Shown piece after piece: positions 6,392 to 63,952 of a stretch of 64,000 nucleotides of DNA. The stretch comes from a bacterium (GTDB lineage Bacteria; Hydrothermota; Tepidihabitantia; SM23-42; JAOAFX01): the NCBI GenBank assembly GCA_049700315.1, contig JBNAVN010000005.1:4305-68304 (forward strand), in the 5' to 3' direction. How positions within the stretch are numbered: the first letter of the stretch is position 1; each line of letters starts with the position of its first letter. Position numbers and translations under genes: made by a program. The notes under the pieces are model-generated. The model saw only the letters and a list, made by a program, of their open reading frames with translations, ran no database searches and was not told the origin of the DNA.

Positions 6392-6453
6392 AGCGTATCA
6401 ACCCTCTCCCCGATAACGTGTTATCTTGGGGAGAGGAAAGGATAGGAGGTTAT

Positions 6454-8643
6454 GTGGTCATAATATTTATTGCTCTGGTTTCTTTTCAGGGCTTTGATTC
6501 ACTGAATGTTAAGTTCCTTGGCAACTGGCCATTTGGAGATGCATGGGCAGTTGCGATTGATTCTGCAAGGAATTTGACATATCTTGGTTCAGGAGGCGGG
6601 ATTTATATTCTTGATGTCTCAGACCTCTCAAATCCAACAAAGACTTCAGAAAGGATTCATACCCGGGGAATTGTCCGGGGAGTATTTTATGAACCAGAAA
6701 CCAATATCCTGTATGCAGGTTATGATAAGAGAATTTCGTGTAGTGGCGGAGGTGCGGATGATACTATTTCCGGCATTGAACTATGGAATATTCAAGACCC
6801 GCTAAATCCTACAAAATTGAGTTCCTGCTTTATATCCGGGAATGTTTATGCAATTTCTGTGGCAAATATCCCCGCGCGCGGCAAATTTGCATTTGTTGCC
6901 TCTGGAAAGAATGGGTTGCGAATAATTGATGTTACCAATCCACTTTCACCAATAGAAGTTGGATATTTTGATACACATGGAGCACTGGATGTTTTCGTTT
7001 CAGACAGCACTGCTTATCTGGCTGATGCGGACTCGGGTTTAAGGATTATAGATATCTCTATTCCTCAAAACCCGGTAGAAATCGGACGATATCAGACCGC
7101 AAGTGCTGCGTATGGTGTTTATGTGGCGGGTATTTACGCTTATGTCGCCGCATCCACATCAGGGCTGCGAATAATCAAAGTTTCCCAACCTAATCATCCG
7201 ATAGAAGTCGGCTATTATGATACACCGGGTTATGCAGTTCGGGTAAGTGTTGCTGACAACATTGCCTGCGTTGCAGATGAAATTGCTGGATTACGGATAG
7301 TAGATATTTCAGCACCATTCAATCCTGTTGAAGTTGGTTATTATGTTACCCCTGATACTGTGCCGGGAATGGCAGAGGGAGTAACTATTTTTAATTCCCG
7401 TAGTTGTGCAATGGTTGCCTTTGCCAGAGCAGGATTGCGGATAATAGATATCTCAAGCCCTAACCGATATGGCGAAGAACTTGGGCACTTTCTAACCCCA
7501 TCACCTACATCCCAGATTCATGTTGCGAACAATTTTGCATATTTGGCAACAGGTAATTCCGGGTTAAAAATAATTGATGTTTCAGACCCATTTAATCCTT
7601 TTGAAGTTGGTTCTTGTAATACCCCAAATTATGCGCTTGATGTCTTTGTTGCAAATGGATTTGCTTATATTGCGGACAATGCCTCGGGTCTCAGAATAAT
7701 TGACATTACAGATCCCTATAATCCAATTGAAGTTGGTTACTATGATACACCAAATTGGACTACAGGGGTCTTTGTAAAAGATACCTTTGCCTACCTTGCA
7801 GATGGAAATGGAGGTGGCTTGAGGATAATCAATATTTCAGACCCCCATAATCCTTATGAGATTGGAAATTGTCCAACCCACTCCTGTGCAGGGGCTGTAT
7901 TTGTTTTAGATACTCTTGCCTATATTGCAGATGGGTCTGCTGGATTGACGATAATAGATATTTCAAATCCCGGTTCCCCACTTGAGATTAGCAACTGTCC
8001 TATAATGGGTTGGACGAATGATGTGGCGGTTTCAGGAGATCATGCCTATGTTGGAGTAATGGATTTTGCCCCTGGTTTCAGGATAGTTGATGTTTCTGAT
8101 CCAACAAATCCTCACGAGGTTGGTTCCTATCCGACCACCGGTTTCACCTATGGTGTCGCAATTTCCAATCGCATCGCCTATGTTGCGGATGGGTATTTTG
8201 GACTCAGGCTGATAGATATTACCAACCCATTGAATCCATATGAAATCGGGTATTATGGGACATCGGCTTGTGCAGTGGGGATCTTTGTGAACGAGTCTTC
8301 TTCAGTCTACTATCTCGCTGACCTTGATGATGGATTGCAAATTTATGGTCCCTTATCTTATATCAAAGAGAATAAAGAAAAGATTTTAAGAAGAACCCCT
8401 CTCTCAATTTCTACTATCTTCAGAAAGAATATCAGGATAAGACTTGGAAAATCAGTCTCTTCTCCGGTGAAGGTTAATCTTTATAATATCTGTGGGCAGT
8501 GCGTATTTGAAAAAAATTATTCTATCCAGGGTTCAGAGATAATAATTAACGAGACAGATATCTCAAACCTCGGTTCGGGCATTTATTTTGTTAGATTGAG
8601 TACAGTGCTACAAAATACAATAAAGATTATAAAAATAAAATAA
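6454..8643 (+). CDS. Secreted LVIVD-repeat protein with a T9SS type A-like C-terminal domain
   Basis: About 12 repeats of AYxADxxxGLRIIDISxPxNPxEVGYYDT; C-term LYNICGQCV..LGSGIYFVRL..KIIKIK. Start set at the GTG after GGAGG (ORF track starts at 6418). Confidence 0.85.
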   Translation: MVIIFIALVSFQGFDSLNVKFLGNWPFGDAWAVAIDSARNLTYLGSGGGIYILDVSDLSNPTKTSERIHTRGIVRGVFYEPETNILYAGYDKRISCSGGGADDTISGIELWNIQDPLNPTKLSSCFISGNVYAISVANIPARGKFAFVASGKNGLRIIDVTNPLSPIEVGYFDTHGALDVFVSDSTAYLADADSGLRIIDISIPQNPVEIGRYQTASAAYGVYVAGIYAYVAASTSGLRIIKVSQPNHPIEVGYYDTPGYAVRVSVADNIACVADEIAGLRIVDISAPFNPVEVGYYVTPDTVPGMAEGVTIFNSRSCAMVAFARAGLRIIDISSPNRYGEELGHFLTPSPTSQIHVANNFAYLATGNSGLKIIDVSDPFNPFEVGSCNTPNYALDVFVANGFAYIADNASGLRIIDITDPYNPIEVGYYDTPNWTTGVFVKDTFAYLADGNGGGLRIINISDPHNPYEIGNCPTHSCAGAVFVLDTLAYIADGSAGLTIIDISNPGSPLEISNCPIMGWTNDVAVSGDHAYVGVMDFAPGFRIVDVSDPTNPHEVGSYPTTGFTYGVAISNRIAYVADGYFGLRLIDITNPLNPYEIGYYGTSACAVGIFVNESSSVYYLADLDDGLQIYGPLSYIKENKEKILRRTPLSISTIFRKNIRIRLGKSVSSPVKVNLYNICGQCVFEKNYSIQGSEIIINETDISNLGSGIYFVRLSTVLQNTIKIIKIK

Positions 8644-8659: not shown

Positions 8660-10099
8660 ATGATTGAATTATTAATAAATTTTGTAGTATTGTTCGCATA
8701 CACGCAGTTTCCTCCTGATACCATGTGGACACGAACATATGGAGGAGAATATAGTGATGGTGCATATCAGGTGCAGCCAACTATAGACAGTGGATTTATT
8801 GTTACCGGCTGGACATCCCTCACGCCTTTTGATAGAGATGTTTATTTGATAAAGACGGATGACGAAGGTATACTCCAGTGGATAAGGACAATTGGTGGAG
8901 GTGGTCATGATATTGGACGGTCAGTTGCGCAGACTTCAGATAAGGGTTATGTCATAGCTGGGGAGACCAGTTCTTACGGGGCAGGGTCTTTTGATGTCTA
9001 TCTGATAAAGTTTGATTCTGCTGGAAATCTATTATGGGAAAAGACTTTTGGCAGGAGTTTTCAGGATGGTGCCCGATCAATCCAGGAACTTCCCGATGGT
9101 GGTTTCATAATTGCTGGACTTACTGATTCTTTAGGATTTGGTGCCTTCAAAGTATATTTGTTAAAAACAGATGCACAGGGAGAAATAATATGGGAGAAGA
9201 CCTATGGTGGTCAGGGCGCGTGCTGGGCCGAGGAGGTACGGCAGACCAATGATGGAGGTTATATAATCATTGGCAGGAACTACTCAAGTGGTAGCGGTGA
9301 TATCTATCTGGTGAAGTGTGATTTCAATGGTGATACATTGTGGACAAAGATTTTTGGGAACAATGGTGAAGATTATGGATTTTCAGTTAGACAGACTCCA
9401 GACAATGGGTATATAATTTGCGGTTGCACATCATCATTGGGTGCTGGTGGTTATGATATTTACTTGATTAAAACCGATTCGGCAGGCGTAAGAATTTGGG
9501 AAAAGACATTTGGTGGAGCAAATGATGATTATGGATATTCAGTAGCACTTGCTAATGATGGTTTTCTTGTTTCTGGTGCAAGTAACTCCTTGGGGCAGGG
9601 TGCATTTGATATATATCTCATTAAAACGGATAATTCTGGCAATACTTTATGGTATAAAACAATTGGTGGAATTGAGGACGAAATATCTTATTCAGCTCAG
9701 CATACCTTGGATGATGGGTGGATTATTGCTGGAACTACCCGTTCTTTTGGGTCAGGAACCCCAGGGCAACCCAATCTCTATCTCGTAAAACTTGGTTCAG
9801 AGGTTGTAGTTACAGAAGTAAAACGAGAAGAAAAAGGAGTTCTTTTATCCCTTTCACCAACATTATTTAGGGATAAACTTACACTAAAATTAACAACAAC
9901 CTTGAGAAGTCCATTACAGATAGTTCTCTATGATGCTGTTGGTAATAAGGTTTATGAGAAATACAATAATCCGGCCCCCACAATTGAATTGACGGGAAGA
10001 GGAATATCTTTACTTAAAAGTGGGATTTATTTCCTGAGTGTTTATTCAAATGGTAAAAAAATAGGAATGTTTAAGGTAATTCATCTTTCTGCTAAATAA
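8660..10099 (+). CDS. Secreted beta-propeller protein (WxKTYGG repeats) with a T9SS type A-like C-terminal domain
   Basis: Repeated WEKTFGG..D.GYSV.QT.DGGYII.G..DIYLIKTD; C-term LYDAVGNKV..LKSGIYFL. Confidence 0.85.
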   Translation: MIELLINFVVLFAYTQFPPDTMWTRTYGGEYSDGAYQVQPTIDSGFIVTGWTSLTPFDRDVYLIKTDDEGILQWIRTIGGGGHDIGRSVAQTSDKGYVIAGETSSYGAGSFDVYLIKFDSAGNLLWEKTFGRSFQDGARSIQELPDGGFIIAGLTDSLGFGAFKVYLLKTDAQGEIIWEKTYGGQGACWAEEVRQTNDGGYIIIGRNYSSGSGDIYLVKCDFNGDTLWTKIFGNNGEDYGFSVRQTPDNGYIICGCTSSLGAGGYDIYLIKTDSAGVRIWEKTFGGANDDYGYSVALANDGFLVSGASNSLGQGAFDIYLIKTDNSGNTLWYKTIGGIEDEISYSAQHTLDDGWIIAGTTRSFGSGTPGQPNLYLVKLGSEVVVTEVKREEKGVLLSLSPTLFRDKLTLKLTTTLRSPLQIVLYDAVGNKVYEKYNNPAPTIELTGRGISLLKSGIYFLSVYSNGKKIGMFKVIHLSAK

Positions 10100-21066: not shown

Positions 21067-22503
21067 TCATCTCTCCATCAATACGATATTCTGGGTCTTT
21101 TGCCAGTTTTTTGTTTTGATTTGTACAAAATATACTCCGGCAGGAAGTTTGCATCCAGAATTGTCATCACCCTGCCATTTAACCCTGCCGATATTCAGGT
21201 GCGCATTTTTGAATTGAACAAAATCCTTTACGAGTCTTCCTGAGGCATTATATATCTTCAATTGAAAATCTTCAGGAATAGCAAAAGAAATCGTAAATTC
21301 TGTTCCGGATAAAGTAGGATAAACTCTGAAATTTGTCTTGTTTGTAAGTTGCTGACTTCTTGATTCTTCAACTCCTGTTGATGCCACAAATTTATAATAA
21401 GTGCTTTCAGGTGCGCATATCGGGTCTGTGTGCCATAAGTCAACACCATTTGCTACGCAAAAAGAATCCTCAGCCCATATAAAATAACCAAGTGTGCAAC
21501 TCTGTGCAACTTCAGGAATATGAAAGTAATAAACATTTCCAGCAATACTGTCATGACCAACACCTATAAAGTCTCCACCATTGATCTTATAAAAAAGTGA
21601 GTCAGTGCCGATTCCTGTTGAATCAGTAATAGTTGACTGGACAATAAACGGACCTGCAAAACTCGTATCTTGCCAGATTGTAGTATTGGCAAATTCCGGC
21701 CCATGAACATCCCAGCCTGGTACATAGAGTTCACTTAATTTCAGAAAATTATCTACAATCATAAAATTCTGACTTGCACCGTTTGTGCTCTGTGCAGCAG
21801 CAACTCCATTAGCACCGCCAAATCTGCCAGGTACTACCCACTCATAAATCCAGCGTGTATCCACGGTTCCAAAATTATCTGTAAACTCCATATAATCCCT
21901 TATCACGAGACAGGGCCAGAAATGATTACCGCTGAATGGAACCCTGACTTTGCCTTTCGCTACAACAACTTTTTGATGGGTCTCATTGGCAGTATAGGGT
22001 AGCCAGCCATCAATATAATATGTCCAGGTCCAGGCAGTATTCCAGCCACCGCCATCATAAATAGGATAGAAGTAGCATTTATAATCCGGCTGATAGTTTC
22101 CAATAAATCTGATTCCTCCAGTTTCAAAATCTATGCCCTGAACATACAGGTATATCTGGTTTTCAGAGAGATATGACCATACTGCACTATTATCACCAAG
22201 TGTATCCAGTTCAATGACCTGGGCATTAGGAAATGTGTCCGGGGCAGGGGGGATACCCTGCGATGGATTAAGCAACTTGACACGGGCATATCCACCACCT
22301 GGATATACGGTCAAATCCCACCAGGTGCGCATAGAATCAAATGGAGTCCATTCAAACAGATCAGCGTTCTGTTCGTATCTTGCACTTGTTCCAATGACAA
22401 ATGGAACATCGTTCTGCCGGATCTGGACTTCTGGTATTGCTGCTAAAAGAACCGGCATTAAAATCACGCTTATTAAAAAACATTTTTCACTTCTCGTAAG
22501 CAT
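21067..22503 (-). CDS. Secreted protein with a FlgD-Ig/T9SS-like C-terminal domain
   Basis: Signal peptide; C-term LKIYNASGRLVK..WQGDDNSG.KLPAGVYFV; AAGGAGG RBS; TTGTCA-16-TATAAT promoter at 22526-22553. Confidence 0.8.
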   Translation of the reverse strand: MLTRSEKCFLISVILMPVLLAAIPEVQIRQNDVPFVIGTSARYEQNADLFEWTPFDSMRTWWDLTVYPGGGYARVKLLNPSQGIPPAPDTFPNAQVIELDTLGDNSAVWSYLSENQIYLYVQGIDFETGGIRFIGNYQPDYKCYFYPIYDGGGWNTAWTWTYYIDGWLPYTANETHQKVVVAKGKVRVPFSGNHFWPCLVIRDYMEFTDNFGTVDTRWIYEWVVPGRFGGANGVAAAQSTNGASQNFMIVDNFLKLSELYVPGWDVHGPEFANTTIWQDTSFAGPFIVQSTITDSTGIGTDSLFYKINGGDFIGVGHDSIAGNVYYFHIPEVAQSCTLGYFIWAEDSFCVANGVDLWHTDPICAPESTYYKFVASTGVEESRSQQLTNKTNFRVYPTLSGTEFTISFAIPEDFQLKIYNASGRLVKDFVQFKNAHLNIGRVKWQGDDNSGCKLPAGVYFVQIKTKNWQKTQNIVLMER

Positions 22504-33015: not shown

Positions 33016-33900
33016 ATGTCATATTTTCTCCAGCAAGTGATAAATGGCCTTCAATTAGGTTTTGTTTATGCACTGATTGCCCTTGGCTATACCATGGTCT
33101 ATGGTATTGTCCGTTTGATAAATTTTGCCCACGGTGATGTATTTATGGTTGGTGCGTATCTCGGGTTTTATGGTCTGGCATTATATCACTTGCCTTTTCC
33201 TTTTGCTATTCTGTTTGCCATGGCAGGTTGTGCAATAATTGGCATCACAATTGAAAGATTTGCGTACAAGCCATTGAGAAGTGCACCGCGAATATCCGCA
33301 TTGATCACGGCAATGGGTGTTTCATTGTTCCTGGAATATTTTACCAGTCTGAAATTTGTGTTTGGTCCAAATTACCTTGCTTATCCCAGACCTTTTGAAG
33401 TATGTACATATCAAATTGGTCCTGTATGCATATCCAATATCCAGATACTTGTATTCAGTGTGGCGATTTTTTTGTTAATTCTTCTGCAGTTCATTGTTCA
33501 AAAAACAAAAATTGGCATGGCAATGAGGGCCGTATCTTATGATAAAGATACTGCAAAATTGATGGGAATAGATGTGAATTTTATCATTTCCATCACCTTC
33601 GGGATTGGTTCAGCACTTGCTGGTGCTGGTGGAGTGCTTTACGGAATTGCCTATCCCCAGATACATCCATTTATGGGAATAATGCCCGGGTTGAAGGCAT
33701 TTGTTGCTGCTGTGCTTGGTGGTATTGGTTCAATTCCTGGTGCAATGCTCGGTGCTCTGATCATGGGCACTGTTGAGACAATGTCTTCAGCATATATTTC
33801 TTCTACAATGCGCGATGCCATTGCCTTTTCAATTTTGATAATTGTTCTTCTGGTAAAACCCACCGGAATATTGGGAAAGACAGAAACAGAGAAAGTATGA
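33016..33900 (+). CDS. livH: Branched-chain amino acid ABC permease
   Basis: ALGYTMVYGI..INFAHG, GMAMRAVS, KAFVAAVLGGIGS. Confidence 0.92.
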   Translation: MSYFLQQVINGLQLGFVYALIALGYTMVYGIVRLINFAHGDVFMVGAYLGFYGLALYHLPFPFAILFAMAGCAIIGITIERFAYKPLRSAPRISALITAMGVSLFLEYFTSLKFVFGPNYLAYPRPFEVCTYQIGPVCISNIQILVFSVAIFLLILLQFIVQKTKIGMAMRAVSYDKDTAKLMGIDVNFIISITFGIGSALAGAGGVLYGIAYPQIHPFMGIMPGLKAFVAAVLGGIGSIPGAMLGALIMGTVETMSSAYISSTMRDAIAFSILIIVLLVKPTGILGKTETEKV

Positions 33901-34000
33901 CCGGTAAATTTCAAATTCCAAATAGAGAAAAATGTAAATATTGGCACTTAACAATTTTGCCAGATTTGGAATCTATAGTCCGGTCTATTGAGAGAAAGAA

Positions 34001-34978
34001 ATGAGAATGAGAAGCAATCTTTATTCAATTGTAATCGTCTTCGCTATCTATGTATTCGTAACAGTGCTTATTTCTCTTGGCATTCTTAATCCATATTGGG
34101 TTCAGATAATTCAGTTTGCTGGAATTATAACAATTTCTGCCCTGGGGCTAAATCTTATCTATGGTTATACAGGGCAGTTTTCCTTAGGACACGCTGCTTT
34201 TTTTGGACTGGGTGCATACTCTTCAGCACTGATAACGAAAACCCTGTATAATCTTGGGTTCTTCTCATTCATTATCGGTCTGATTGTTGCGATAGGGATT
34301 GTTGCCATAATCGCATTTCTCATTGGCTTGCCGATTCTCCGGTTGAAATCAGATTATCTGGGTATTGCAACACTTGGTTTTGGAATCATTGTTAAGGTAC
34401 TGTTTGACAATGCAGATGCGGTCATTCCTATCTTGGGTGGTTCACGCGGAATGCTGGGAATTTCAAAATACACAGTTTTCCCTTTGACCTACCTGTTCGT
34501 GATTGCTGCTGTTATTGTCATAAGAAACTATGTATTTTCTGATATTGGCAGGGCTTGCATTTCCATAAGAGAAGATGATGTTGCTTCAGAATCTGTAGGT
34601 GTTGATACAACAAAATACAGAACTATGGGTTTTGTATTCGGTTCGGTGTTTGCTGGTGTTGCAGGAGTGCTCTACGCCCATTTGTATTCTTTTTTACACC
34701 CTTCTAATTTTGATTTTCTCAAATCAATTGATGTTCTTTTGATTGTAGTACTTGGTGGTCTGGGCAGTATTTCCGGCACAATAATTGCGGCAATTGCCTG
34801 GACATTTCTTCTGGAAGGACTCAGGGTTGTTCTGCCTGCACAGATTCTTGATTGGCGACTTGTTATCTATCCTTTAGTGCTGATAATTGTTATGCTTATC
34901 AAACCAATGGGAATTGGAAGTGGAATGGAATTCAAATTTTTGAGAATGGAAAGTCATTATACTGATAAAAAAGGGTGA
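34001..34978 (+). CDS. livM: Branched-chain amino acid ABC permease
   Basis: GYTGQFSLGHAAF, LRLKSDYL, AIREDD-like, LGGLGS. Confidence 0.92.
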   Translation: MRMRSNLYSIVIVFAIYVFVTVLISLGILNPYWVQIIQFAGIITISALGLNLIYGYTGQFSLGHAAFFGLGAYSSALITKTLYNLGFFSFIIGLIVAIGIVAIIAFLIGLPILRLKSDYLGIATLGFGIIVKVLFDNADAVIPILGGSRGMLGISKYTVFPLTYLFVIAAVIVIRNYVFSDIGRACISIREDDVASESVGVDTTKYRTMGFVFGSVFAGVAGVLYAHLYSFLHPSNFDFLKSIDVLLIVVLGGLGSISGTIIAAIAWTFLLEGLRVVLPAQILDWRLVIYPLVLIIVMLIKPMGIGSGMEFKFLRMESHYTDKKG

Positions 34979-34990
34979 AAAGATATCATT

Positions 34991-35791
34991 ATGCAAAAAA
35001 ATATTGATAATACAGATATGGCTAATAGTCCTGTACTGAAGATCTGGAAGTTGACCAAGTATTTTGGTGGATTAAGGGCAGTATCAAATTTTGACCTTGT
35101 TGTAAATAAATATGAACTGGTCGGTTTGATCGGTCCCAATGGCGCGGGTAAGACCACAGTGTTTAATTTGGTCACTGGCATATATCAATCTGATTCTGGA
35201 AAGATTATGCTAAACAATGAAACAATTAATAATTTAAAACCCTTCCAAATTGCCCATCGTGGCATTGCCCGGACATTCCAGAATATCAGGCTTTTCAGTA
35301 ATCTTACAGTTCTTGATAATGTAAAAATCGCTTGCCACAAGGATGTGAAATACGGCGTATTATCAGCAATTTTCAGAGACAAGAAATTCACTAATGAAGA
35401 AAAGAAAATTGAGCAAAAGGCTTATGATATTCTTTCTATCTTTGGTCTGAATGGACGTGCACACGAATTGGCAAAGAATCTACCTTACGGCGAACAGCGA
35501 AAGTTGGAAATTGTTCGTGCCCTTGCTACAAACCCTGAGGTTTTGTTACTTGATGAACCGGCAGCAGGGATGAATCCGCAGGAGACGATTAAACTTATGG
35601 ATTTGATCAATTTTATTCGGGAAAAATTTAGACTGACAATCTTATTGATTGAACACCAGATGAGGGTGGTAATGTCTATCTGCGAGAGAGTGAGTGTAAT
35701 GGATTTTGGTGAGAAGATTGCTGAAGGCAATCCCAAGGAAATCCAGAACGATCCCAGAGTCATTGAGGCATATCTTGGAAAAGATAGTTAG
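34991..35791 (+). CDS. livG: Branched-chain amino acid ABC ATPase
   Basis: GPNGAGKTT, RTFQN, LPYGEQR, LDEPAAG, YLG. Confidence 0.93.
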   Translation: MQKNIDNTDMANSPVLKIWKLTKYFGGLRAVSNFDLVVNKYELVGLIGPNGAGKTTVFNLVTGIYQSDSGKIMLNNETINNLKPFQIAHRGIARTFQNIRLFSNLTVLDNVKIACHKDVKYGVLSAIFRDKKFTNEEKKIEQKAYDILSIFGLNGRAHELAKNLPYGEQRKLEIVRALATNPEVLLLDEPAAGMNPQETIKLMDLINFIREKFRLTILLIEHQMRVVMSICERVSVMDFGEKIAEGNPKEIQNDPRVIEAYLGKDS

Positions 35792-35794
35792 TTT

Positions 35795-36538
35795 ATGCAA
35801 AATATGGAGAACAAACCCGAAAGAAACAACCTAATCCTGGATGTAAGAAATTTAAGCGTTCACTATGGCGCAATTCATGCACTGCATGAGATCGTCTTTA
35901 AAGTATGTGCCGGCGAAATTGTTGCCTTGATCGGTGCGAATGGTGCAGGAAAAAGCACAACCTTGAGGACAATTTCTGGACTGGTAAAGGCAAAATCCGG
36001 CAGTATTTACTTTGAAGACAAAGATATTACAAATCTTCCGGGACATAAGATCACTGGGCTTGGTATTGGACATGTGCCCGAAGGAAGAAAACCCTTTGCC
36101 AATCTCTCGGTCTATGAGAATCTAAGACTTGGTGCCTATTTGATCAATGACCAAAAGTTAATTGGCAATACAATGGAGCGTATATTTAAATCTTTTCCGC
36201 GATTGAAAGAAAGGCTTTCTCAGCCTTCTGGAACACTTTCTGGTGGTGAATTGCAGATGCTGGCAATAGCAAGGGCTTTGATGTCCAGACCTAAACTCTT
36301 GATGCTTGATGAACCATCAATGGGTTTGTCACCCATATTGGTTAATGAGATTTTCAGTATAATCAAAGAGATCAACAAACAGGGCACAAGCATTTTGCTT
36401 GTTGAACAGAACGCACATAAGGCATTGTCAATATGCAATTATGCTTATGTGCTTGAAACAGGAAGAGTAACAATACAGGGGAAGGGCAGAGATTTGCATG
36501 ACAATCCTGTTGTAAAAGCAGCATACCTGGGTGCATAG
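35795..36538 (+). CDS. livF: Branched-chain amino acid ABC ATPase
   Basis: GANGAGKST, VPEGR, LSGGELQM, LDEPSMG, LVEQN. Confidence 0.93.
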   Translation: MQNMENKPERNNLILDVRNLSVHYGAIHALHEIVFKVCAGEIVALIGANGAGKSTTLRTISGLVKAKSGSIYFEDKDITNLPGHKITGLGIGHVPEGRKPFANLSVYENLRLGAYLINDQKLIGNTMERIFKSFPRLKERLSQPSGTLSGGELQMLAIARALMSRPKLLMLDEPSMGLSPILVNEIFSIIKEINKQGTSILLVEQNAHKALSICNYAYVLETGRVTIQGKGRDLHDNPVVKAAYLGA

Positions 36539-57329: not shown

Positions 57330-58301
57330 ATGATATTCTACATTTTCTTGGTATTGATACTTATGATATTCAGCGCTTTTTTCTCGGGGATGGAAGCTGC
57401 CATATTCTCAATAAGCAAATTCCGTGTAAAAACGTTATTGTTTGAGAATGTCAGGGGTGCAAAAAACCTTTCGCGCATAAAAGAAGACCCGGGCAGGACT
57501 CTTTCCACATTGCTTTTGTTGAATGATGTGGTTAATATAGGTGCTTCTTCGGTTGCGACCATTATAATAAGCCAATTATTATTACAATATCAGTTATCTC
57601 CGGCATTCTTTTATGTTTTTGAAATATTTTTAATGACATTTGTTCTTTTATTACTTGGTGAAATCACACCCAAGACTATTTTTCTAAATAATGCGGAGTT
57701 CTTCAGTCTGAACTTGAGTCTTGTTGTGGAATTTTTTAACAAACTTACAATACCTTTCACGAGAATGGCGAGCAAAATTATTCACTTAATTTTTCCTGTC
57801 AAGAAAAACATTGAGGTTTCCGAAGAAGATGTTAGAAAGATGTTGACCGAAGCAAGAAAATTAAAAATTCTTGATGAGACCGAAGAACAACTGGGATATA
57901 GAATGCTCAAATTCGGTCAAGTATTGGTCAAGGAAATTATGGTATCAGCGTGCAATGTTGTGAGCCTGAATTTAGACAAAACCGTTGAAGATGCAATGGA
58001 ATTATTGAAAAGATACGGGCATTCACGCATCTGCGTCTTAAACAATGCGAACCAGGTAGTTGGTGTGTTGTATGCGAAAGATTTGATTCTGCACAACTTA
58101 TCAAAAAGCCGGCCGATTTCAGAATTTATGCGAAAACCTTTTTTTATTTTGAATACAAAGCCTATTGATGAGTTGCTTGTTGAATTTAGAAAGAAAGGTG
58201 TGCATTTTGCAGTGGTGCACGATTTAAATGGAAATTTCGTGGGTATTGCAACTTTGAATGATGTTCTAAAATATCTTTTTGGTGATATACCCGAAGTGTG
58301 A
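57330..58301 (+). CDS. CNNM (DUF21) + CBS-pair protein, paralogue 1
   Basis: FFSGMEAA, GEITPK, HSRI, GIATLNDVL. Confidence 0.88.
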   Translation: MIFYIFLVLILMIFSAFFSGMEAAIFSISKFRVKTLLFENVRGAKNLSRIKEDPGRTLSTLLLLNDVVNIGASSVATIIISQLLLQYQLSPAFFYVFEIFLMTFVLLLLGEITPKTIFLNNAEFFSLNLSLVVEFFNKLTIPFTRMASKIIHLIFPVKKNIEVSEEDVRKMLTEARKLKILDETEEQLGYRMLKFGQVLVKEIMVSACNVVSLNLDKTVEDAMELLKRYGHSRICVLNNANQVVGVLYAKDLILHNLSKSRPISEFMRKPFFILNTKPIDELLVEFRKKGVHFAVVHDLNGNFVGIATLNDVLKYLFGDIPEV

Positions 58302-58302
58302 T

Positions 58303-59229
58303 ATGATGTTGATTTTTGTTTCACTTGTACTGGTATTACTGATAGGAATTTTTACTTCTTCTGAGACTGCATTCTTGTGTGTGGATAAAACAAAAGTACT
58401 TTATGCCGCTGAAGAGAAAAAAGCCTGGGCAATGATAACCAGAAAATTTACCCAAAAGCCAGCAGAGTTCTTTTCTACAATTCTTACTTGCGAGGATTTT
58501 CTCATTGTTGCCGCATCTAATCTCTTAACAATCTACTTTATCAGGAACTACAGCGAAAACTGGGTCTTTCTTTCAACAATATTCCTCTCTTTTTTCTCTC
58601 TAATATTTGGTCAACTGATTCCAAAATCCATTGCCTTGTTGTATCCAGAGAAAATACTTATGGTTAATACAAGAATTATTGTATTTTTCAAAACTGTTCT
58701 TCTGCCAATTGTTGCATTGTTTGCAGGGATCAGCCAGGGTCTTGCCAATCTATTCAGAATGCATTCAGGTAATGCAATTATTCGGCATCAGGATATCGTC
58801 TTTGCGATAAGTGAATATGAAAAAGATACGAGTTTGCTTGCTGCACGTTTGTTTGATTTTTCAAAAAGAAGAGTTTCGGAGAGTATGGTTCCAATCAGTA
58901 TCGCGCTGGTCTGCAGAAATACTGAAGATTTCAAAGAATTTTGCCTTGAATCAGGACGCTTATTCAGATATGTTCCTATCATGGATAGCCAGAAAAATGA
59001 AATTGTTGGCGTAATCAACACTAAAGACTATTTTATCAATGATTCGGTTGAAATAAAACCTCCTTTCTTCATTAAAGAAAACGAGAGATGTATGGAGGCG
59101 TTTTTGAAAATGAAGGAAAAAGGCGAACACATTGCAGTTGTTCAAGATGGGGATGGACAAGTAGTTGGAATAATTACGATTTATGATTTGATTGAAGAAC
59201 TGGTAGGAGCAATAAGAGAAGAGAAGTAG
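58303..59229 (+). CDS. CNNM (DUF21) + CBS-pair protein, paralogue 2
   Basis: TSSETAF, GQLIPKS, GIITIYDLIEELVG. Confidence 0.85.
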   Translation: MMLIFVSLVLVLLIGIFTSSETAFLCVDKTKVLYAAEEKKAWAMITRKFTQKPAEFFSTILTCEDFLIVAASNLLTIYFIRNYSENWVFLSTIFLSFFSLIFGQLIPKSIALLYPEKILMVNTRIIVFFKTVLLPIVALFAGISQGLANLFRMHSGNAIIRHQDIVFAISEYEKDTSLLAARLFDFSKRRVSESMVPISIALVCRNTEDFKEFCLESGRLFRYVPIMDSQKNEIVGVINTKDYFINDSVEIKPPFFIKENERCMEAFLKMKEKGEHIAVVQDGDGQVVGIITIYDLIEELVGAIREEK

Positions 59230-59375: not shown

Positions 59376-60272
59376 ATGGAAAAATATTTTGGCGAACTTG
59401 CCGCATTAGGAACTTCTTTTTGCTGGTCTTTTGGTTCGGTATTGTTCACTATGGCATCGCGCTTGGTAGGCTCAACCGAAGTAAATCGCATCCGGTTGGT
59501 TGTGGGAATGATGCTTCTGATGTTTACTCATTGGATACTATATGGAATGTTATTTCCAGTAAATGCTACTGCACATCACTGGTTCTGGTTTGGCATTTCA
59601 GGTATAATTGGCTTTACAATTGGAGACACATTCTTGTTTCGCGGATATCTACTGATTGGACCTCGTTTGACGATGCTGTTAATGTCTCTCTCGCCAATTT
59701 TCGGCGCAATATTAGCCTGGTTATTTCTCAAGGAATCGTTAAGGTCTCTTGAAATTCTTGCGATAATAATAACACTCTTGGGTATTAGTTTGGTCCTTTA
59801 TGACAAAAGGAATGAGGGATTAGATGAGAAAAATTTCCTTACTGGTATTATCTGTGGTATTTGCGCATCGCTCTGCCAGGCACTTGGTTATTATGCATCA
59901 AAGAAAGGGCTTTTGTGTTGTGATTTTCCTGCTATTTCAGGGAATGTTATACGGGTCACATTTGGCGCAGTTTTCATCTGGCTAATAGCTGGAATCCAGG
60001 GGCAAATAAAAGAGACTTTGGGTAAACTGACAAATAGAAGAGCAGATATGTCCATCTTAGGAGGTGCATTTTTCGGTCCTTTTGTGGGTGTATGGCTATC
60101 ATTGGTTGCAATTCAATATACCAATATCGGGATTGCCTCCACGCTAATGGCGTTACCGCCAGTCATTCTCATCCCAATTTCGCACCTGCTTTTCAAAGAA
60201 CATATCACTCACATTTCAATATTTGGTACGATCATCGCTCTAATTGGCGTTGCTTTGATATTCCTCACTTGA
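59376..60272 (+). CDS. EamA/DMT family transporter
   Basis: 10 TM segments in two repeats; GFTIGDTFLF, GPRL, GIAST..ALPPV. Confidence 0.9.
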   Translation: MEKYFGELAALGTSFCWSFGSVLFTMASRLVGSTEVNRIRLVVGMMLLMFTHWILYGMLFPVNATAHHWFWFGISGIIGFTIGDTFLFRGYLLIGPRLTMLLMSLSPIFGAILAWLFLKESLRSLEILAIIITLLGISLVLYDKRNEGLDEKNFLTGIICGICASLCQALGYYASKKGLLCCDFPAISGNVIRVTFGAVFIWLIAGIQGQIKETLGKLTNRRADMSILGGAFFGPFVGVWLSLVAIQYTNIGIASTLMALPPVILIPISHLLFKEHITHISIFGTIIALIGVALIFLT

Positions 60273-60280
60273 TTCCATCA

Positions 60281-60308
60281 TTGACAAATGACAAATTTTT
60301 GATAAAAT
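60281..60308 (+). promoter_or_regulatory. Promoter of the chemoreceptor-cheW pair
   Basis: TTGACA-16-TAAAAT, 8 nt before ATG 60317. Confidence 0.7.
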
Positions 60309-60316
60309 ATATACAT

Positions 60317-63300
60317 ATGGCTGAAGAAGTCGTTCAGAAATTGCTGGAAAGGCTTAAGCCTTTACTGAGCCAGTACGATTCCAACTTTCAAAATTTTCTT
60401 AATATCGGACAGAGAATAGATAATGCGCTTCAAATCAATACTGATCTTCTGGGAGAAATACGTCAAAGATTCTATAGTTTATCTGCAACCGTGGAACTGG
60501 TGCTTGAAGGTGTTGCGGTGTTTGATGGTGAAATAAAAAAGACCCACGAGTTATTGAAAAAAAGCATTGAAAATTTCAGAGATTCGCTTGCGATTTCCGA
60601 TAAGATAAGTTTTGATCTTACGAATATTGCGAGCATTTTAAAGGAGATACACGAACAGACAGGAAAACTTGCTGATACTATTCAGAATATAGATATGGTT
60701 TCTGAGTCAATAGAAGTTGCGTCTCGCAATGCGGGGATTACCGCTTATCACGCTGGGAGGCAAGGGCGTGGTTTTGAAGTGATTGCACGAGAGATGACCG
60801 GTTTGGTTCGTAGCTCACAGAAACCCACCAGCGCAATCCCCACAATTTCTTTTGAATTGCTCAAAGGTGTTGATGAACTTCATCAAGATTTGAAAAGAAT
60901 TCAGGATGTTATAGTATTTTTGAAGGAAATCGCAAACAAATTCTTGAACATCAATAATGAATTGCTCAATTTGATTCCTTATCTTGAAGACTCCATAAAA
61001 GATATTTCCAACAGCGTTTTGGTTCAGAAAGATTTGCATACTGCCCTGCACAGCGAAAGTGAAAAACTGCCCGCATATTTGAATGAAATATACAGTGTTA
61101 CTCGCACTACCGCAATAACTGAGATGTTTTTGTCCGCATTTTTTCAGCATTTGAACAATACCAAGAATAGTCTGATTTCAGCGAAAAATGATAATAACTT
61201 CTATTATTTTTTTAATACCTTCAATAGAATATTAGAAAACGAGCCCCGTTTAGAGGAAGGCATTGAACAATTAGGTCGTGCCAGCCTAAAAAGACTTGAA
61301 ATTCATTCCTTAGAACGTCTGGCACTGCAGTTTGTATCAGAAGCCAAACACCTGAATGAAATCATAACTCAGATTACAGAAAAAATAAGATCGTGGATAA
61401 ATACCCACAAGTTTGCCAATGAAACGCTTTCTCGTGCTAAAGTTTTCTATGAGGATATTGGAGAATTAGTCAATTCCCTGAGTGTTAAGGCTCACGAGTT
61501 AAAGGAACTTATTAATAAGATAGATAAACCATTGCAGGAATTAAAAAGGATCACTGAACGTTCGCGATTACTTGGATTGTATGCTGGTATTGAAAGTGCG
61601 CGGAGTGGCGAATACTCAAGCGCACTCGGTGTGGTTACATCTGAAATAAAAACGCTATCAGTCAAGTCCACCGAATTTGTGGCTGCAATTGACAAGATTG
61701 AGGGTGAAATGCTGGCAGATTTCAGAAATTTGATTTCCTGTTTCATACGTGCTTCAGGAGACGTGGAATTAGGGCTTGATGCACTAAATGACTCTTTAGT
61801 GGCAATAAATGAAAGTTCCAAAGTATTAGACAATCTTTCTTCTCTTTCTCAAGAGATGCTCAGTTCCACGCGTGAAATGACAAATCAATGCGGGTTGCTC
61901 AGTGACCATCACAGGATCTTTGAATCTGAGTACCAGAAGATCAATGAGGATTTTGCTTCGTACGGGAATACGATAAAAACAGGCGAAACATTGACCAGGG
62001 AAATAAAGTCAATCATCGCTGAATTCAAGAAAGATGTCTTTGTCATTACAACTTCACGAAAAACAATCGTTTTTCGTGCAACAGAAGATCCTATTGTTCT
62101 GGATCCCGCTATCAAGACTGATACTACAAGTCACCAGATAATTGAACAGATGTTCACAGGGCTCTATACCTTTGATCAGTTGAATCATTTGATTCCCGGT
62201 GTAGCAAAGTCTTTTTCGGTTTCAGCAGATGGTAAGATCTGGGATTTCTTTATCAAAAAGGGAGTCAAATTTCACAATGGAGTAGAAGTTCAGGCAAAGG
62301 ACGTAGTTAATTCACTAAATAGAGTAAGAAAAGGTCCGAATGCATCTTTTATTGAGTATGTCTCAGATATGATAGTCATTGACCCTTATCATATTAGGTT
62401 CACCCTCAAGTTTCCTTATGTGCCATTTTTGGCGAACATTTCCTGTGGTATTGGTGATATTGTTCCATCTGATTTTGATCAAGAACACCCAATAGGTTGC
62501 GGTCCGTACAAACTCATTTCCTACGAAAAGAAAAGACAGATCATCCTGGAGGCATTTGAAGATTTTTTTGACGGTAGACCACCTGTAGACAGTTGTGTCG
62601 TTTTGAATATCACAGATGACAATGAAGCCATAGACCTTTTCAAAAAGGGCCAGATTTCAATCTTGAGTCTAACCTCAAATATGCTAAGAGATTTTTCCCC
62701 TGAAACTATCTATTCTGGTTCAGCACTTTCTACCCAATACCTGGCGATCAATTTTTCAAAGAAATCACCTTTCTTAGATTTGCGCGTGCGTCAGGCAATG
62801 AATTATGCAATTGATAGAGATCTTTATTGCCGGGAACTGCTCGGAGGAAAAGCAATTCCTGCGTATGGCGTTTACCCGCCAGGATTGCCAGGATACAACA
62901 AGGGTCTAATAAGTTATAACTATGACCTGAAAAAAGCTCGAGATTTGATGAAAGAAGCAGGCTTTGGAACCGGCATATCAGATGTATTTCAGCTTGATGT
63001 ACGGTCAGGCGTTGACAATATAAGAAGAGCAAAATTTATTAAAGATTCATTTGCAAAAATTGGGATATATTTGGAGGTCAATGCATTGCCCTGGGAGGAA
63101 TTTCTGAATAAGACCTATAGTGGTAACAGCATTCTTTGTTTACGAGGCTGGGTTTCAGACAACGGTGATCCTGATAATTTTGTTTCACTATTTCACTCCA
63201 AAAATTTTGGGGCAAGTGGCAATACTTCTTTCTACGGCAATGAAGAACTTGACAGGATGATTGAATCGGCTCGCGCAGAGCAAATAATAAGACGCCGAAT

Positions 63301-63457
63301 GGAATTGTACCAGAAAATAGAAAAATTCATTGTTGATAATGCACTCTGGGTTTTTGTTTCACACGGTGTTGACTGTTATGCTGTTCAGAAAAATATAAAA
63401 GGTTTTGTGGTTGATCCATTTGGTTTGGTTCGTTTCAGAAACCTTTATTGCGAGTAA
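60317..63457 (+). CDS. Soluble chemoreceptor-like protein with two MCP signalling domains fused to a C-terminal ABC solute-binding family 5 (OppA/DppA-like) domain
   Basis: RNAGITAYHAGRQGRGFEVIAREM and RLLGLYAGIESARSGEYSSALGVVTSEI hairpin motifs; LDP..IIEQMFTGL..A.S..S.DG..W.F.IKKGVKFHNG family 5 signature; no TM segment seen. Confidence 0.85.
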   Translation: MAEEVVQKLLERLKPLLSQYDSNFQNFLNIGQRIDNALQINTDLLGEIRQRFYSLSATVELVLEGVAVFDGEIKKTHELLKKSIENFRDSLAISDKISFDLTNIASILKEIHEQTGKLADTIQNIDMVSESIEVASRNAGITAYHAGRQGRGFEVIAREMTGLVRSSQKPTSAIPTISFELLKGVDELHQDLKRIQDVIVFLKEIANKFLNINNELLNLIPYLEDSIKDISNSVLVQKDLHTALHSESEKLPAYLNEIYSVTRTTAITEMFLSAFFQHLNNTKNSLISAKNDNNFYYFFNTFNRILENEPRLEEGIEQLGRASLKRLEIHSLERLALQFVSEAKHLNEIITQITEKIRSWINTHKFANETLSRAKVFYEDIGELVNSLSVKAHELKELINKIDKPLQELKRITERSRLLGLYAGIESARSGEYSSALGVVTSEIKTLSVKSTEFVAAIDKIEGEMLADFRNLISCFIRASGDVELGLDALNDSLVAINESSKVLDNLSSLSQEMLSSTREMTNQCGLLSDHHRIFESEYQKINEDFASYGNTIKTGETLTREIKSIIAEFKKDVFVITTSRKTIVFRATEDPIVLDPAIKTDTTSHQIIEQMFTGLYTFDQLNHLIPGVAKSFSVSADGKIWDFFIKKGVKFHNGVEVQAKDVVNSLNRVRKGPNASFIEYVSDMIVIDPYHIRFTLKFPYVPFLANISCGIGDIVPSDFDQEHPIGCGPYKLISYEKKRQIILEAFEDFFDGRPPVDSCVVLNITDDNEAIDLFKKGQISILSLTSNMLRDFSPETIYSGSALSTQYLAINFSKKSPFLDLRVRQAMNYAIDRDLYCRELLGGKAIPAYGVYPPGLPGYNKGLISYNYDLKKARDLMKEAGFGTGISDVFQLDVRSGVDNIRRAKFIKDSFAKIGIYLEVNALPWEEFLNKTYSGNSILCLRGWVSDNGDPDNFVSLFHSKNFGASGNTSFYGNEELDRMIESARAEQIIRRRMELYQKIEKFIVDNALWVFVSHGVDCYAVQKNIKGFVVDPFGLVRFRNLYCE

Positions 63458-63459
63458 CT

Positions 63460-63879
63460 ATGGAAACATTAATAATATTTAAGATAGCCGAGGAGGTGAT
63501 TGGTATGGACATCAGAAAGGTGCGTGAAGTGACTGAATTACCGGCAGTGGTGCCTGTACCTAAATCTCCGGATTTTCTGTTTGGGCTGGCAAATATACGC
63601 GGTGAGATCGTGCCGGTCATCTCATTGCGAAGACGTCTGGGAATTGGTGGTGATGAATTGTGTAATCTATTGCTCGTGGTTGAAGATGGAGAGCGGATTG
63701 CTGGGTTGCGTGTTGACAATCTTCTTGGCACAAAGAAAATCAATGAGAGAAATATCAACACAAAATCCGATATGCTTGCAACAAAGAAAAAGAAGGATTT
63801 TTTCTTCGGTGTATATGAAACTGAAGAAAAACCTATTCTCATCTTAGACCTTAACAAGACTTTGGCAGAAGATGAATGA
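63460..63879 (+). CDS. cheW: Chemotaxis adaptor CheW
   Basis: VREV..VVPVP..P.FLFGLANIRGEIVPVISLRRRLG, GLRVD. Confidence 0.92.
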   Translation: METLIIFKIAEEVIGMDIRKVREVTELPAVVPVPKSPDFLFGLANIRGEIVPVISLRRRLGIGGDELCNLLLVVEDGERIAGLRVDNLLGTKKINERNINTKSDMLATKKKKDFFFGVYETEEKPILILDLNKTLAEDE

Positions 63880-63952
63880 ACAGGGTTCGTTCTTAGTAAA
63901 ATAATATTAGAATCTTGACTTTTTTCAAAATTGTGATAAAATTATTATCTTA

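Follow-up and report, generated by a model that had tools for sequence, protein, structure and literature searches.

Near the end of the 64,000-nucleotide (nt) stretch analyzed here (contig JBNAVN010000005.1; hereinafter, the window), a single gene encodes a chemoreceptor in which two tandem signaling hairpins of the methyl-accepting chemotaxis protein (MCP) type are followed by a C-terminal family 5 solute-binding protein (SBP5) domain. The tips of the two hairpins differ from each other in a complementary manner that is maintained throughout the family. We propose that this is a natural single-chain heterodimeric receptor that would derive from the tandem duplication of a hairpin-SBP5 homodimer, with the inner and outer roles permanently split between the hairpins and one sensor per bundle, and that in bacteria of the candidate division WOR-3 it would be the sensor of a methylation-free che pathway through which a non-flagellar machine for polarity or motility is informed of peptide levels in the cytoplasm. 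For this reading as a whole, we estimate a probability of about 0.45.

Domain architecture and hairpin tips

Each half of the hairpin region, when scanned alone, matched the Pfam profile MCPsignal (PF00015; gathering score of 34.6 bits), with 43.9 bits (E value of 3e-11) for residues 101 to 234 and 46.6 bits (E value of 5e-12) for residues 385 to 523, i.e., the profiles detect two MCP domains and not only one. Residues 625 to 963 matched SBP_bac_5 (PF00496) with 262.6 bits (E value of 8e-78). A hydropathy scan of the 1046 residues found no signal peptide, lipobox or transmembrane (TM) segment, and no export signal lies upstream of the gene. Since the highest Kyte-Doolittle window of 19 residues reached only 1.21, the receptor appears to be soluble; in free SBP relatives from the same search, the N-terminal windows were at ca. 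1.9 to 2.9. Being soluble and having both a genuine pair of MCP domains and a genuine SBP domain of family 5, the protein is, by prediction, a cytosolic sensor. A previous description made from the letters alone (the sequence-only reading) had already noted the length, the lack of signal peptide and TM segments, two separate and differently degenerate MCP tips, a full family 5 SBP domain, a cytosolic sensory role and a cheW gene starting 2 nt after the receptor stop (TAA at 63455-63457, ATG at 63460), and all of these points were borne out, those on the tips both by the Pfam scores and by alignments to Tsr, PcaY and Tm14.

The AlphaFold2 (AF2) model of the whole receptor (61-sequence alignment; mean predicted local distance difference test [pLDDT] of 89 and predicted TM-score [pTM] of 0.67) has four hairpin arms of ca. 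141 to 148 residues each. The junction between the two hairpins contains the least conserved 20-residue stretch of the receptor (residues 301 to 320, conservation of 0.36), residues 311 to 330 were modeled with a pLDDT of 59 to 70, and the insertions and deletions of the family fall here as well (4 residues after position 315 in 45 sequences and 12 residues after position 293 in one).

The tips are instead among the most conserved parts of the protein, with a mean column conservation of 0.83 to 0.93 (0.83 for tip 2). Tip 1 reads ...SRNAGITAYHAG-RQGRGFEVIAREM, with the turn G147-R148-Q149, and tip 2 reads ...RSRLLGLYAGIESARSG-EYSSALGVVTSEI, with the turn G431-E432-Y433, both turns aligning with G390-E391-Q392 of Tsr. 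Each hairpin retains a different subset of the Tsr interface residues, which are described in PMC13098124. Hairpin 1 keeps N381 (N138), V384 (I141) and G393-R394-G395-F396 (G150 to F153), followed by V398-A400, and departs from Tsr at L380, replaced by an invariant Arg (R137), at E385, replaced by Thr or Lys (T142 here), and at R388, replaced by an invariant His (H145). Hairpin 2 keeps I377, L378, L380, V384, E385 and R388 (as L418, L419, L421, I425, E426 and R429); its N381 has become an invariant Tyr (Y422), its F396 an invariant Leu (L437), and GRGF is lost.

The double-hairpin family comprises at least 86 full-length sequences, and we counted tip patterns over 86 and residue invariance over 61 of them. 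Invariant residues are S136, R137, N138, A139, A143, H145, G147, G150, G152 and F153 in tip 1 and R415, L419, L421, Y422, A423, I425, E426 and L437 in tip 2. The tip 1 pattern, (A/S)RNAxIxA(Y/F)HAGxxG(R/K)GFEV(I/V)A, was found in 86/86 sequences, as was the tip 2 pattern, (L/I)L(S/G)LYAxIExAR.G, with no GRGF after it. All 86 thus combine a first tip that has GRGF and its Phe after a divergent N-helix with a second that has a canonical N-helix and no GRGF. The same asymmetry is seen in distant paralogues and in proteins that contain the hairpin-SBP5 unit twice, and the tip is fully canonical in ca. 20 of 22 relatives with a single MCP hairpin and an SBP5 domain. Judged from these alignments, the tips complement each other and have not decayed independently.

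All chemoreceptor arrays studied place the two identical subunits of a dimer in unlike surroundings. Identical receptor subunits already work asymmetrically, since their inner and outer N-helices do different jobs: in the Tsr trimers of dimers, the inner N-helices meet at the trimer axis, while the outer ones bind CheW and CheA-P5 (PMC6681711). A Phe pair has been reported in all known MCPs, F396 and F396' stacking between the C-helices of the two Tsr subunits (PMC6681711). At this position, tip 1 has F153 and tip 2 the invariant L437, and a pseudo-dimer would pair F with L, not F with F'. If our reading is true, a receptor with unlike and invariant tips would separate the inner and outer roles, which are genetically inseparable with identical subunits, would reveal the tip features that each role needs, and would test whether one sensor domain per bundle is sufficient for kinase control. 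Such a fixed asymmetry would be surprising to a chemotaxis specialist and experimentally useful. In a distant clade with orphan paralogues (P0080 type; relatives' proteins and loci carry the prefixes P and L), tip 1 has GRGL instead of GRGF, hence no tip Phe at all.

Packing of the two hairpins

We somewhat favor an arrangement in which the two hairpins fold back on each other as a single-chain pseudo-dimer, because the tips are complementary, the arms have matching lengths that vary together, a variable junction interrupts the helix, relatives with two hairpin-SBP5 units exist, and the hairpin region modeled alone reached a pTM of 0.63. Over the 86 members, the median lengths are 148 residues from the N terminus to tip 1, 285 from tip 1 to tip 2 and 151 from tip 2 to the SBP domain, so the span between the tips equals 2 x 142 residues and matches the outer arms. 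Between clades these lengths change together (Spearman coefficient of 0.76 for the first against the last arm over 28 representatives, uncorrected for phylogeny). The pTM of 0.63 was obtained by AF2 for residues 1 to 580 with a 7-sequence alignment, and we estimate that independently placed halves would give ca. 0.45 to 0.5. The relatives with two hairpin-SBP5 units and the same tip asymmetry suggest descent from a hairpin-SBP5 homodimer. The sequence-only reading had left the choice between a single-chain pseudo-dimer and a bridge between two array layers, and the balance of these data leans slightly toward the pseudo-dimer, which in the window protein would mean one sensor per four-helix bundle.

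In the mechanism that we propose, the two tandem hairpins would form one four-helix bundle ca. 20 nm long with both tips at the same end. The canonical tip features would be divided between them, hairpin 1 providing GRGF, the Phe and the Asn, and hairpin 2 a Leu-rich N-helix with a Glu-Arg pair. The single DppA-like Venus-flytrap domain, placed on the last helix, would stand at the bundle end far from the tips and bind, in the cytoplasm, a di- or tripeptide-like ligand whose amino group is free. Closure of the flytrap would be relayed via the last helix to the tips and would set the activity of CheA, coupled by the adjacent single-domain CheW. Phosphorylated CheY, reset by CheC, would then act on a TPR/Roadblock module (plus PATAN in distant clades). 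Engineered single-chain Tar and Tm14 fused dyads or foldons from the Crane laboratory bind CheA and CheW and alter CheA activity (bioRxiv 10.1101/2020.03.27.011866). They share with the window receptor the two hairpins in one chain and the pseudo-dimeric four-helix bundle proposed for it, although they are artificial, are short with 71 residues per hairpin and consist of identical copies, while the window receptor is natural, of full length and asymmetric, with ca. 142 residues per arm and a sensor. We thus propose that the window receptor works most like an engineered single-chain receptor dimer with a fused DppA-type sensor.

Several points limit the case for this arrangement. The evidence for the packing of the hairpins is indirect, and the AF2 monomer run is biased to pack the hairpins intramolecularly whatever occurs in the cell. 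Covariation analysis (mutual information with average product correction over 86 sequences, with an effective number of sequences of 43 to 70) was underpowered. Its same-height bands ranked 2 to 3 of 21 for the pairs N1-N2, N1-C2 and C1-N2 and 15 of 21 for C1-C2, but the intrahairpin positive controls were equally weak, the interhairpin signal never exceeded them, and an entropy gradient is a possible confounder. The correlation of arm lengths, apart from lacking a correction for phylogeny, fits a symmetric two-layer array too, in which equal hairpins would likewise be needed. A Foldseek search of the PDB with the model of residues 1 to 580 gave only poor coiled-coil matches (SMC, pore-forming toxins and MCP hairpins; root mean square deviation [rmsd] of 8 to 125 Å) that are uninformative on geometry.

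The most serious competitor of the pseudo-dimer is a rod such as that of DosM (Vibrio cholerae VC1403), a receptor with two signaling domains that bridges two baseplates (PMC7534058). The chain would homodimerize with its hairpins pointing in opposite directions, bracing the two CheA/CheW baseplates of a sandwiched cytoplasmic array and with the SBP domains in the mid-plane. Like DosM, which is defined by its tandem signaling domains and seen by cryo-electron tomography as an extended rod (PMC7534058; PMC9321776), the window receptor is soluble, has two tandem MCP domains in one chain and has its gene in a che cluster; two layers are frequent among arrays that are purely cytoplasmic, equal hairpins fit a symmetric sandwich, and the second, orphan paralogue found in many WOR-3 genomes could supply the partners that DosM needs at the other trimer positions. 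However, DosM and a triple-domain CheW are jointly the defining components of F9 systems, which carry cheB and cheR, and a sensor domain is missing from 98% of DosM homologues (PMC9321776). Here, CheW has a single domain, the receptor has a 464-residue SBP domain, the operon has cheC instead, and the Pfam gene calls for five operon loci (L001 to L004 and L007) included neither cheB nor cheR within 10 kb, the whole genome not being searched. Because cheB/cheR and a triple CheW are lacking in this way, the window system is not a DosM/F9 system. Besides, a homodimeric rod would expose two incomplete tips at each end (one end without the canonical N-helix, the other without GRGF and the Phe pair), the broken and variable junction provides no continuous helix, and two SBP domains of 52 kDa would probably crowd the mid-plane, all of which makes the rod unlikely. 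DosM has a tip at each rod end, in contrast to the side-by-side packing favored for the window receptor, whose two tips each carry a complementary part of the canonical motif.

Even less likely is an ordinary homodimer in which one hairpin is the working kinase-control tip and the other a degenerate coiled coil acting as spacer or adaptor, for instance as a bundle that lies between the tip and the SBP domain and dimerizes or relays input. Each tip does miss part of the canonical motif, hairpin 2 lacks GRGF and the Phe, and Pfam finds only one MCPsignal stretch in distant paralogues (P0080), but the high conservation of tip 2 with its eight invariant residues, the complementary losses, not limited to one hairpin, and the fact that both halves of the window protein exceed the Pfam cutoff argue against a mere spacer. 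An exported or transporter-associated SBP with a long coiled-coil extension, as the database names of relatives and the strong SBP_bac_5 match might suggest, is highly improbable in view of the two MCPsignal domains, the lack of signal peptide, lipobox or TM segment, the adjoining che genes in place of ABC permease or ATPase genes, and a score against the DppA equivalog of 196 bits for a cutoff of 1005. The chance that an assembly or gene-calling artifact has fused two or three neighboring genes is negligible, as the architecture and length are uninterrupted in more than 80 independent assemblies, two closed chromosomes among them; no support for a fusion was found, and the one split homologue (L006) is due to a frameshift. 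No public sequencing run was listed as containing the stretch, and the exclusion of a fusion rests on the conservation of the family.

Sensor domain, operon and output

The best solved relative of the SBP domain is E. coli DppA (PDB 1DPP; E value of 1e-58 by phmmer against the PDB). The AF2 model of the window domain has the two-lobed fold and superposes on DppA, GbpA and OppA with a TM-score normalized by the target (TMt) of 0.81 to 0.86. By Foldseek, the match to the liganded, closed form 1DPP (TMt of 0.84, rmsd of 2.9) is better than to the open form (rmsd of 5.9), and among close relatives the best superposition is with the glutathione-binding GbpA 3M8U (TMt of 0.86). The pocket motif, GW(V/T)(S/G)DNGDPDNF, is almost identical to that of DppA; W945, G950, D951, D953 and F955 are invariant, and D948, the equivalent of DppA Asp408, is retained in 59/61 sequences. 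In DppA, Asp408 forms a salt bridge to the dipeptide's amino terminus (PMC3295651). Since DppA is the best solved relative and the equivalent of Asp408 is kept, a peptide-like ligand is plausible, and we see about even odds for a ligand with a free amino group, either a di- or tripeptide or a glutathione-like compound.

Other features of the domain weaken the case for a peptide ligand. The region of DppA Arg355, which we take to bind the ligand carboxylate, has a two-residue deletion, and R896 (53/61 sequences) lies 1 to 2 positions off, making its equivalence ambiguous. Family 5 SBPs also bind nickel (complexes), opines, heme and sugars. The score of the receptor against the NCBIfam DppA equivalog (NF043070), given above, indicates that it is not a DppA orthologue. 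In the E. coli DppA-Tap pair, a DppA-type family 5 protein likewise recognizes the ligand in chemotaxis and the Asp for the amino terminus is conserved, but DppA moves freely in the periplasm and docks on a receptor in the membrane (transmembrane type), while the window domain is cytoplasmic and fused C-terminally. A precedent for a cytoplasmic sensor of this type is SgrR, a helix-turn-helix regulator with a family 5 SBP-type sensor and a DNA-binding output. The window SBP domain gave a partial NCBIfam match to E. coli SgrR (E value of 5e-15), the similarity spanning part of the domain.

The window ends 121 nt after cheW, and since an exact look-up of the window protein gave no record, the genes beyond it were read from L002, a syntenic relative at 79% identity, and from other loci. 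Upstream of the receptor, L002 shares PhoH, 7TM-HD, YbeY, two CNNM genes and EamA with the window; downstream it has cheW, cheY, cheA, cheC and then a 794-residue TPR protein. In the clade of the window, cheW stands directly 3' of the receptor in 24/24 species-representative loci, cheY-cheA-cheC and a large TPR protein follow in all 20 loci that are long enough, and a Roadblock/LC7 gene is reached in 17 of these 20. Robl_LC7 genes close the operon in L001, L003, L004 and L007, i.e., at a place that lies beyond the window end, and the best PDB sequence match of the Roadblock proteins is the Robl_LC7 protein 7F8M. In loci of distant clades (L004, L007, L040 and L059), the operon is retained, with a PATAN-domain protein in addition. 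The CheW proteins of relatives also have a single domain (137 to 152 residues). At the operon end, directly after the Roadblock genes, there is a gene for protein-L-isoaspartate O-methyltransferase (PCMT) in L001 (19934-20644), L003 (19960-20676), L010 and L012 to L015.

Methylation-based adaptation looks absent from this pathway: apart from the missing cheB and cheR calls, the receptor has no conserved EE/QE pair, the window protein has a single match to the methylation consensus, and only 18/86 relatives have at least one. As to the output, Roadblock proteins (MglB and MglC) act downstream of the Frz chemosensory system as regulators of the polarity switch MglA; in cyanobacteria, the motor of the type IV pilus is bound by PATAN response regulators. 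Because Roadblock, TPR and PATAN proteins belong to polarity or pilus control elsewhere, we infer from the domain content of the operon a link to motility, and we regard an output on polarity or surface motility rather than on flagella as an even bet. The operon resembles the Frz (FrzCD)-MglA/MglB system of Myxococcus and the cyanobacterial Tax and Pix systems in that a cytoplasmic MCP with CheW, CheA and CheY (present in the window together with the syntenic L002, and also in L001 and L003) stands upstream of Roadblock, TPR and PATAN proteins. It differs from them in that the Roadblock, TPR and PATAN genes are inside the che operon, no MglA GTPase was seen within 10 kb, CheA and CheY are not joined in one protein, and PATAN has no recorded receiver. 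Weighing against such an output, neither the 10 kb around the operon nor the 64-kb window showed an MglA-type GTPase or any gene for pili, gliding or flagella (no genome-wide search was made). The literature on WOR-3 motility gave nothing specific. The family points to a WOR-3 chemosensory pathway whose operon ends in Roadblock/TPR/PATAN genes, not in adaptation enzymes.

Family and genomic neighborhood

A word-indexed search retrieved 63 relatives at 37 to 79% identity, nearly all of them 1043 to 1051 residues long; every named one belongs to the candidate division WOR-3, and two are on closed chromosomes. A profile search of 1.84 billion representative proteins found ca. 30 clusters at 50% identity with the end-to-end architecture (1018 to 1137 residues), and a scan of species-representative genomes located the double-hairpin family in WOR-3, Candidatus Stahlbacteria, Candidatus Edwardsbacteria and UBP2. 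The profile search also gave ca. 22 clusters of shorter soluble proteins (ca. 800 to 845 residues) with one MCP hairpin and the same SBP5 domain at the C terminus, MCPs anchored in the membrane that likewise carry SBP5 at the C terminus, and proteins of ca. 1600 residues with the order MCPsignal-SBP5-MCPsignal-SBP5. Among the latter alternating chains are P0066 (1605 residues; L062), which shares the tip asymmetry of the window protein, P0098 (1673 residues), P0162 and P0204. They resemble an intermediate step on the way from a hairpin-SBP5 homodimer to the hairpin-hairpin-SBP5 form. The triple architecture had been called unusual in the sequence-only reading, a term to be qualified: it characterizes a conserved family of at least 86 sequences and has single-hairpin relatives in Firmicutes and elsewhere.

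One of these single-hairpin proteins, WP_379804118.1 from the isolate Haloimpatiens sp. FM7330, has the same sensor placement and SBP5 subfamily as the window receptor (it matches the family profile over ca. 300-1047). Such proteins are uncharacterized and differ from the window receptor by their one hairpin with a canonical tip, presumably forming ordinary homodimers; P0131 (L009), in a Clostridium-type genome, is an orphan gene at the one locus examined. WP_379804118.1 is labeled only "ABC transporter substrate-binding protein," the label of most database records of the double-hairpin family too, although the automatic JGI annotation names both domains. The family corrects this widespread label and adds a fused cytoplasmic DppA-type domain to the known sensors of chemoreceptors. 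Our literature search found no paper describing the architecture of two MCPsignal domains with SBP_bac_5, a fused cytoplasmic SBP5 sensor or complementary tips, and by the searches above the receptor is a member of a conserved, unstudied family in WOR-3 bacteria.

Many WOR-3 genomes contain two paralogues, one at least 37% identical to the window protein and the other at ca. 26 to 29%. The second paralogues, like the Edwardsbacteria and UBP2 copies, are orphan genes. In the pairs of WOR-3 and Stahlbacteria genomes, one member heads the che operon and the other is an orphan, as in L060 (CP070834.1, 148697-171606) and L031, on the same chromosome, and in L041/L023, L053/L020, L071/L022, L054/L029, L050/L021, L043/L013 and L044/L017. 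Two candidates for a natural split version were rejected, P0090 being a contig-edge fragment and P0103/L006 a frameshifted copy. In the latter (L006/L027, JAOZNQ010000198.1, 291-3436), a frameshift near residue 270 splits the homologue into open reading frames (ORFs) of 349 and 687 residues, either by assembly error or because it is a pseudogene.

The features of the receptor gene and its surroundings are collected in Table 1. The EamA gene ends at 60272, 45 nt upstream of the receptor ATG at 60317. A longer receptor ORF from 60092 was set aside, as it overlaps the EamA gene and the homologues share the Met at 60317; this M1 is nearly invariant, and the homologues align from it. The promoter-like site ends 8 nt before the ATG, with no Shine-Dalgarno sequence in the intervening stretch, and the receptor transcript may lack a leader altogether or have one that is very short, although a consensus scan found sigma-70-like sites across the whole region to be no commoner than in shuffles. 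A second such site (TTGACT, 16 nt, TAAAAT, with TG) at 63915-63942 lies in the gap of ca. 150 nt 3' of cheW, a gap also found in L002, and suggests a second transcription start upstream of cheY.

Table 1. Features of the receptor gene and adjoining sites, in window coordinates (aa, amino acid residues of the receptor unless stated otherwise)
Feature	Positions	Strand	Details	Basis
Promoter-like site	60281..60308	+	TTGACA-16-TAAAAT with TG extension	Consensus scan, 11/12 matches; pattern match only
Receptor gene	60317..63457	+	1046 aa plus stop: hairpin 1, junction, hairpin 2, linker, SBP5 domain	ORF, Pfam, AF2
Signaling hairpin 1	60317..61180	+	aa 1-288: helix 5-145, turn 146-148, helices 147-248 and 251-288	Pfam 43.9 bits; AF2
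Tip 1	60704..60799	+	aa 130-161, ESIEVASRNAGITAYHAGRQGRGFEVIAREMT	Alignment to Tsr 1QU7; conserved over 61 and 86 sequences
Junction	61181..61303	+	aa 289-329: helix breaks 289-291, 308-312 and 322-329, two short helices between	AF2 DSSP
Signaling hairpin 2	61304..62035	+	aa 330-573: helices 330-400 and 403-429, turn 430-432, helix 431-573	Pfam 46.6 bits; AF2
Tip 2	61556..61651	+	aa 414-445, ERSRLLGLYAGIESARSGEYSSALGVVTSEIK	Alignments to PcaY 6S18 and Tm14 3G6B; conserved over 61 and 86 sequences
Linker	62036..62062	+	aa 574-582, nine residues from last bundle helix to first SBP strand	AF2 DSSP
Family 5 solute-binding (DppA-like) domain	62063..63454	+	aa 583-1046, without export signal	Pfam SBP_bac_5; phmmer vs PDB; Foldseek
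Pocket motif	63146..63181	+	aa 944-955, GWVSDNGDPDNF; D948 = DppA Asp408	Alignments
cheW	63460..63879	+	139 aa, single CheW domain; ATG 2 nt 3' of receptor stop	Pfam CheW 99.6 bits

The position upstream of the receptor that is taken by the EamA transporter in the window and in L002 is occupied in L001 (7619-9298) and L003 (8178-9762), on the minus strand, and in L024 by a divergent cstA, of the carbon starvation/peptide-pyruvate transporter family; L001 and L003 come from closed WOR-3 genomes. Elsewhere in the window, 33016-36538 encodes a Liv-type branched-chain amino acid ABC transporter with two permeases and two ATPases, with no substrate-binding protein gene seen adjoining. Large secreted-type proteins with C-terminal sorting domains of the type IX secretion system (T9SS) are encoded at 6418-8640, 8660-10096 and 21070-22503 (also 3866-6388), one of them with eight LVIVD repeats and Por_Secre_tail and two with weak Por_Secre_tail/CHU_C matches, and a BNR/sortilin-repeat protein adjoins. 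They suggest that the organism has a T9SS, a system tied to gliding motility in Bacteroidota. Between ybeY and the EamA gene there are two tandem, overlapping CNNM/CBS (CorC-type) genes (57330-58301 and 58279-59229), an arrangement likewise found in L002.

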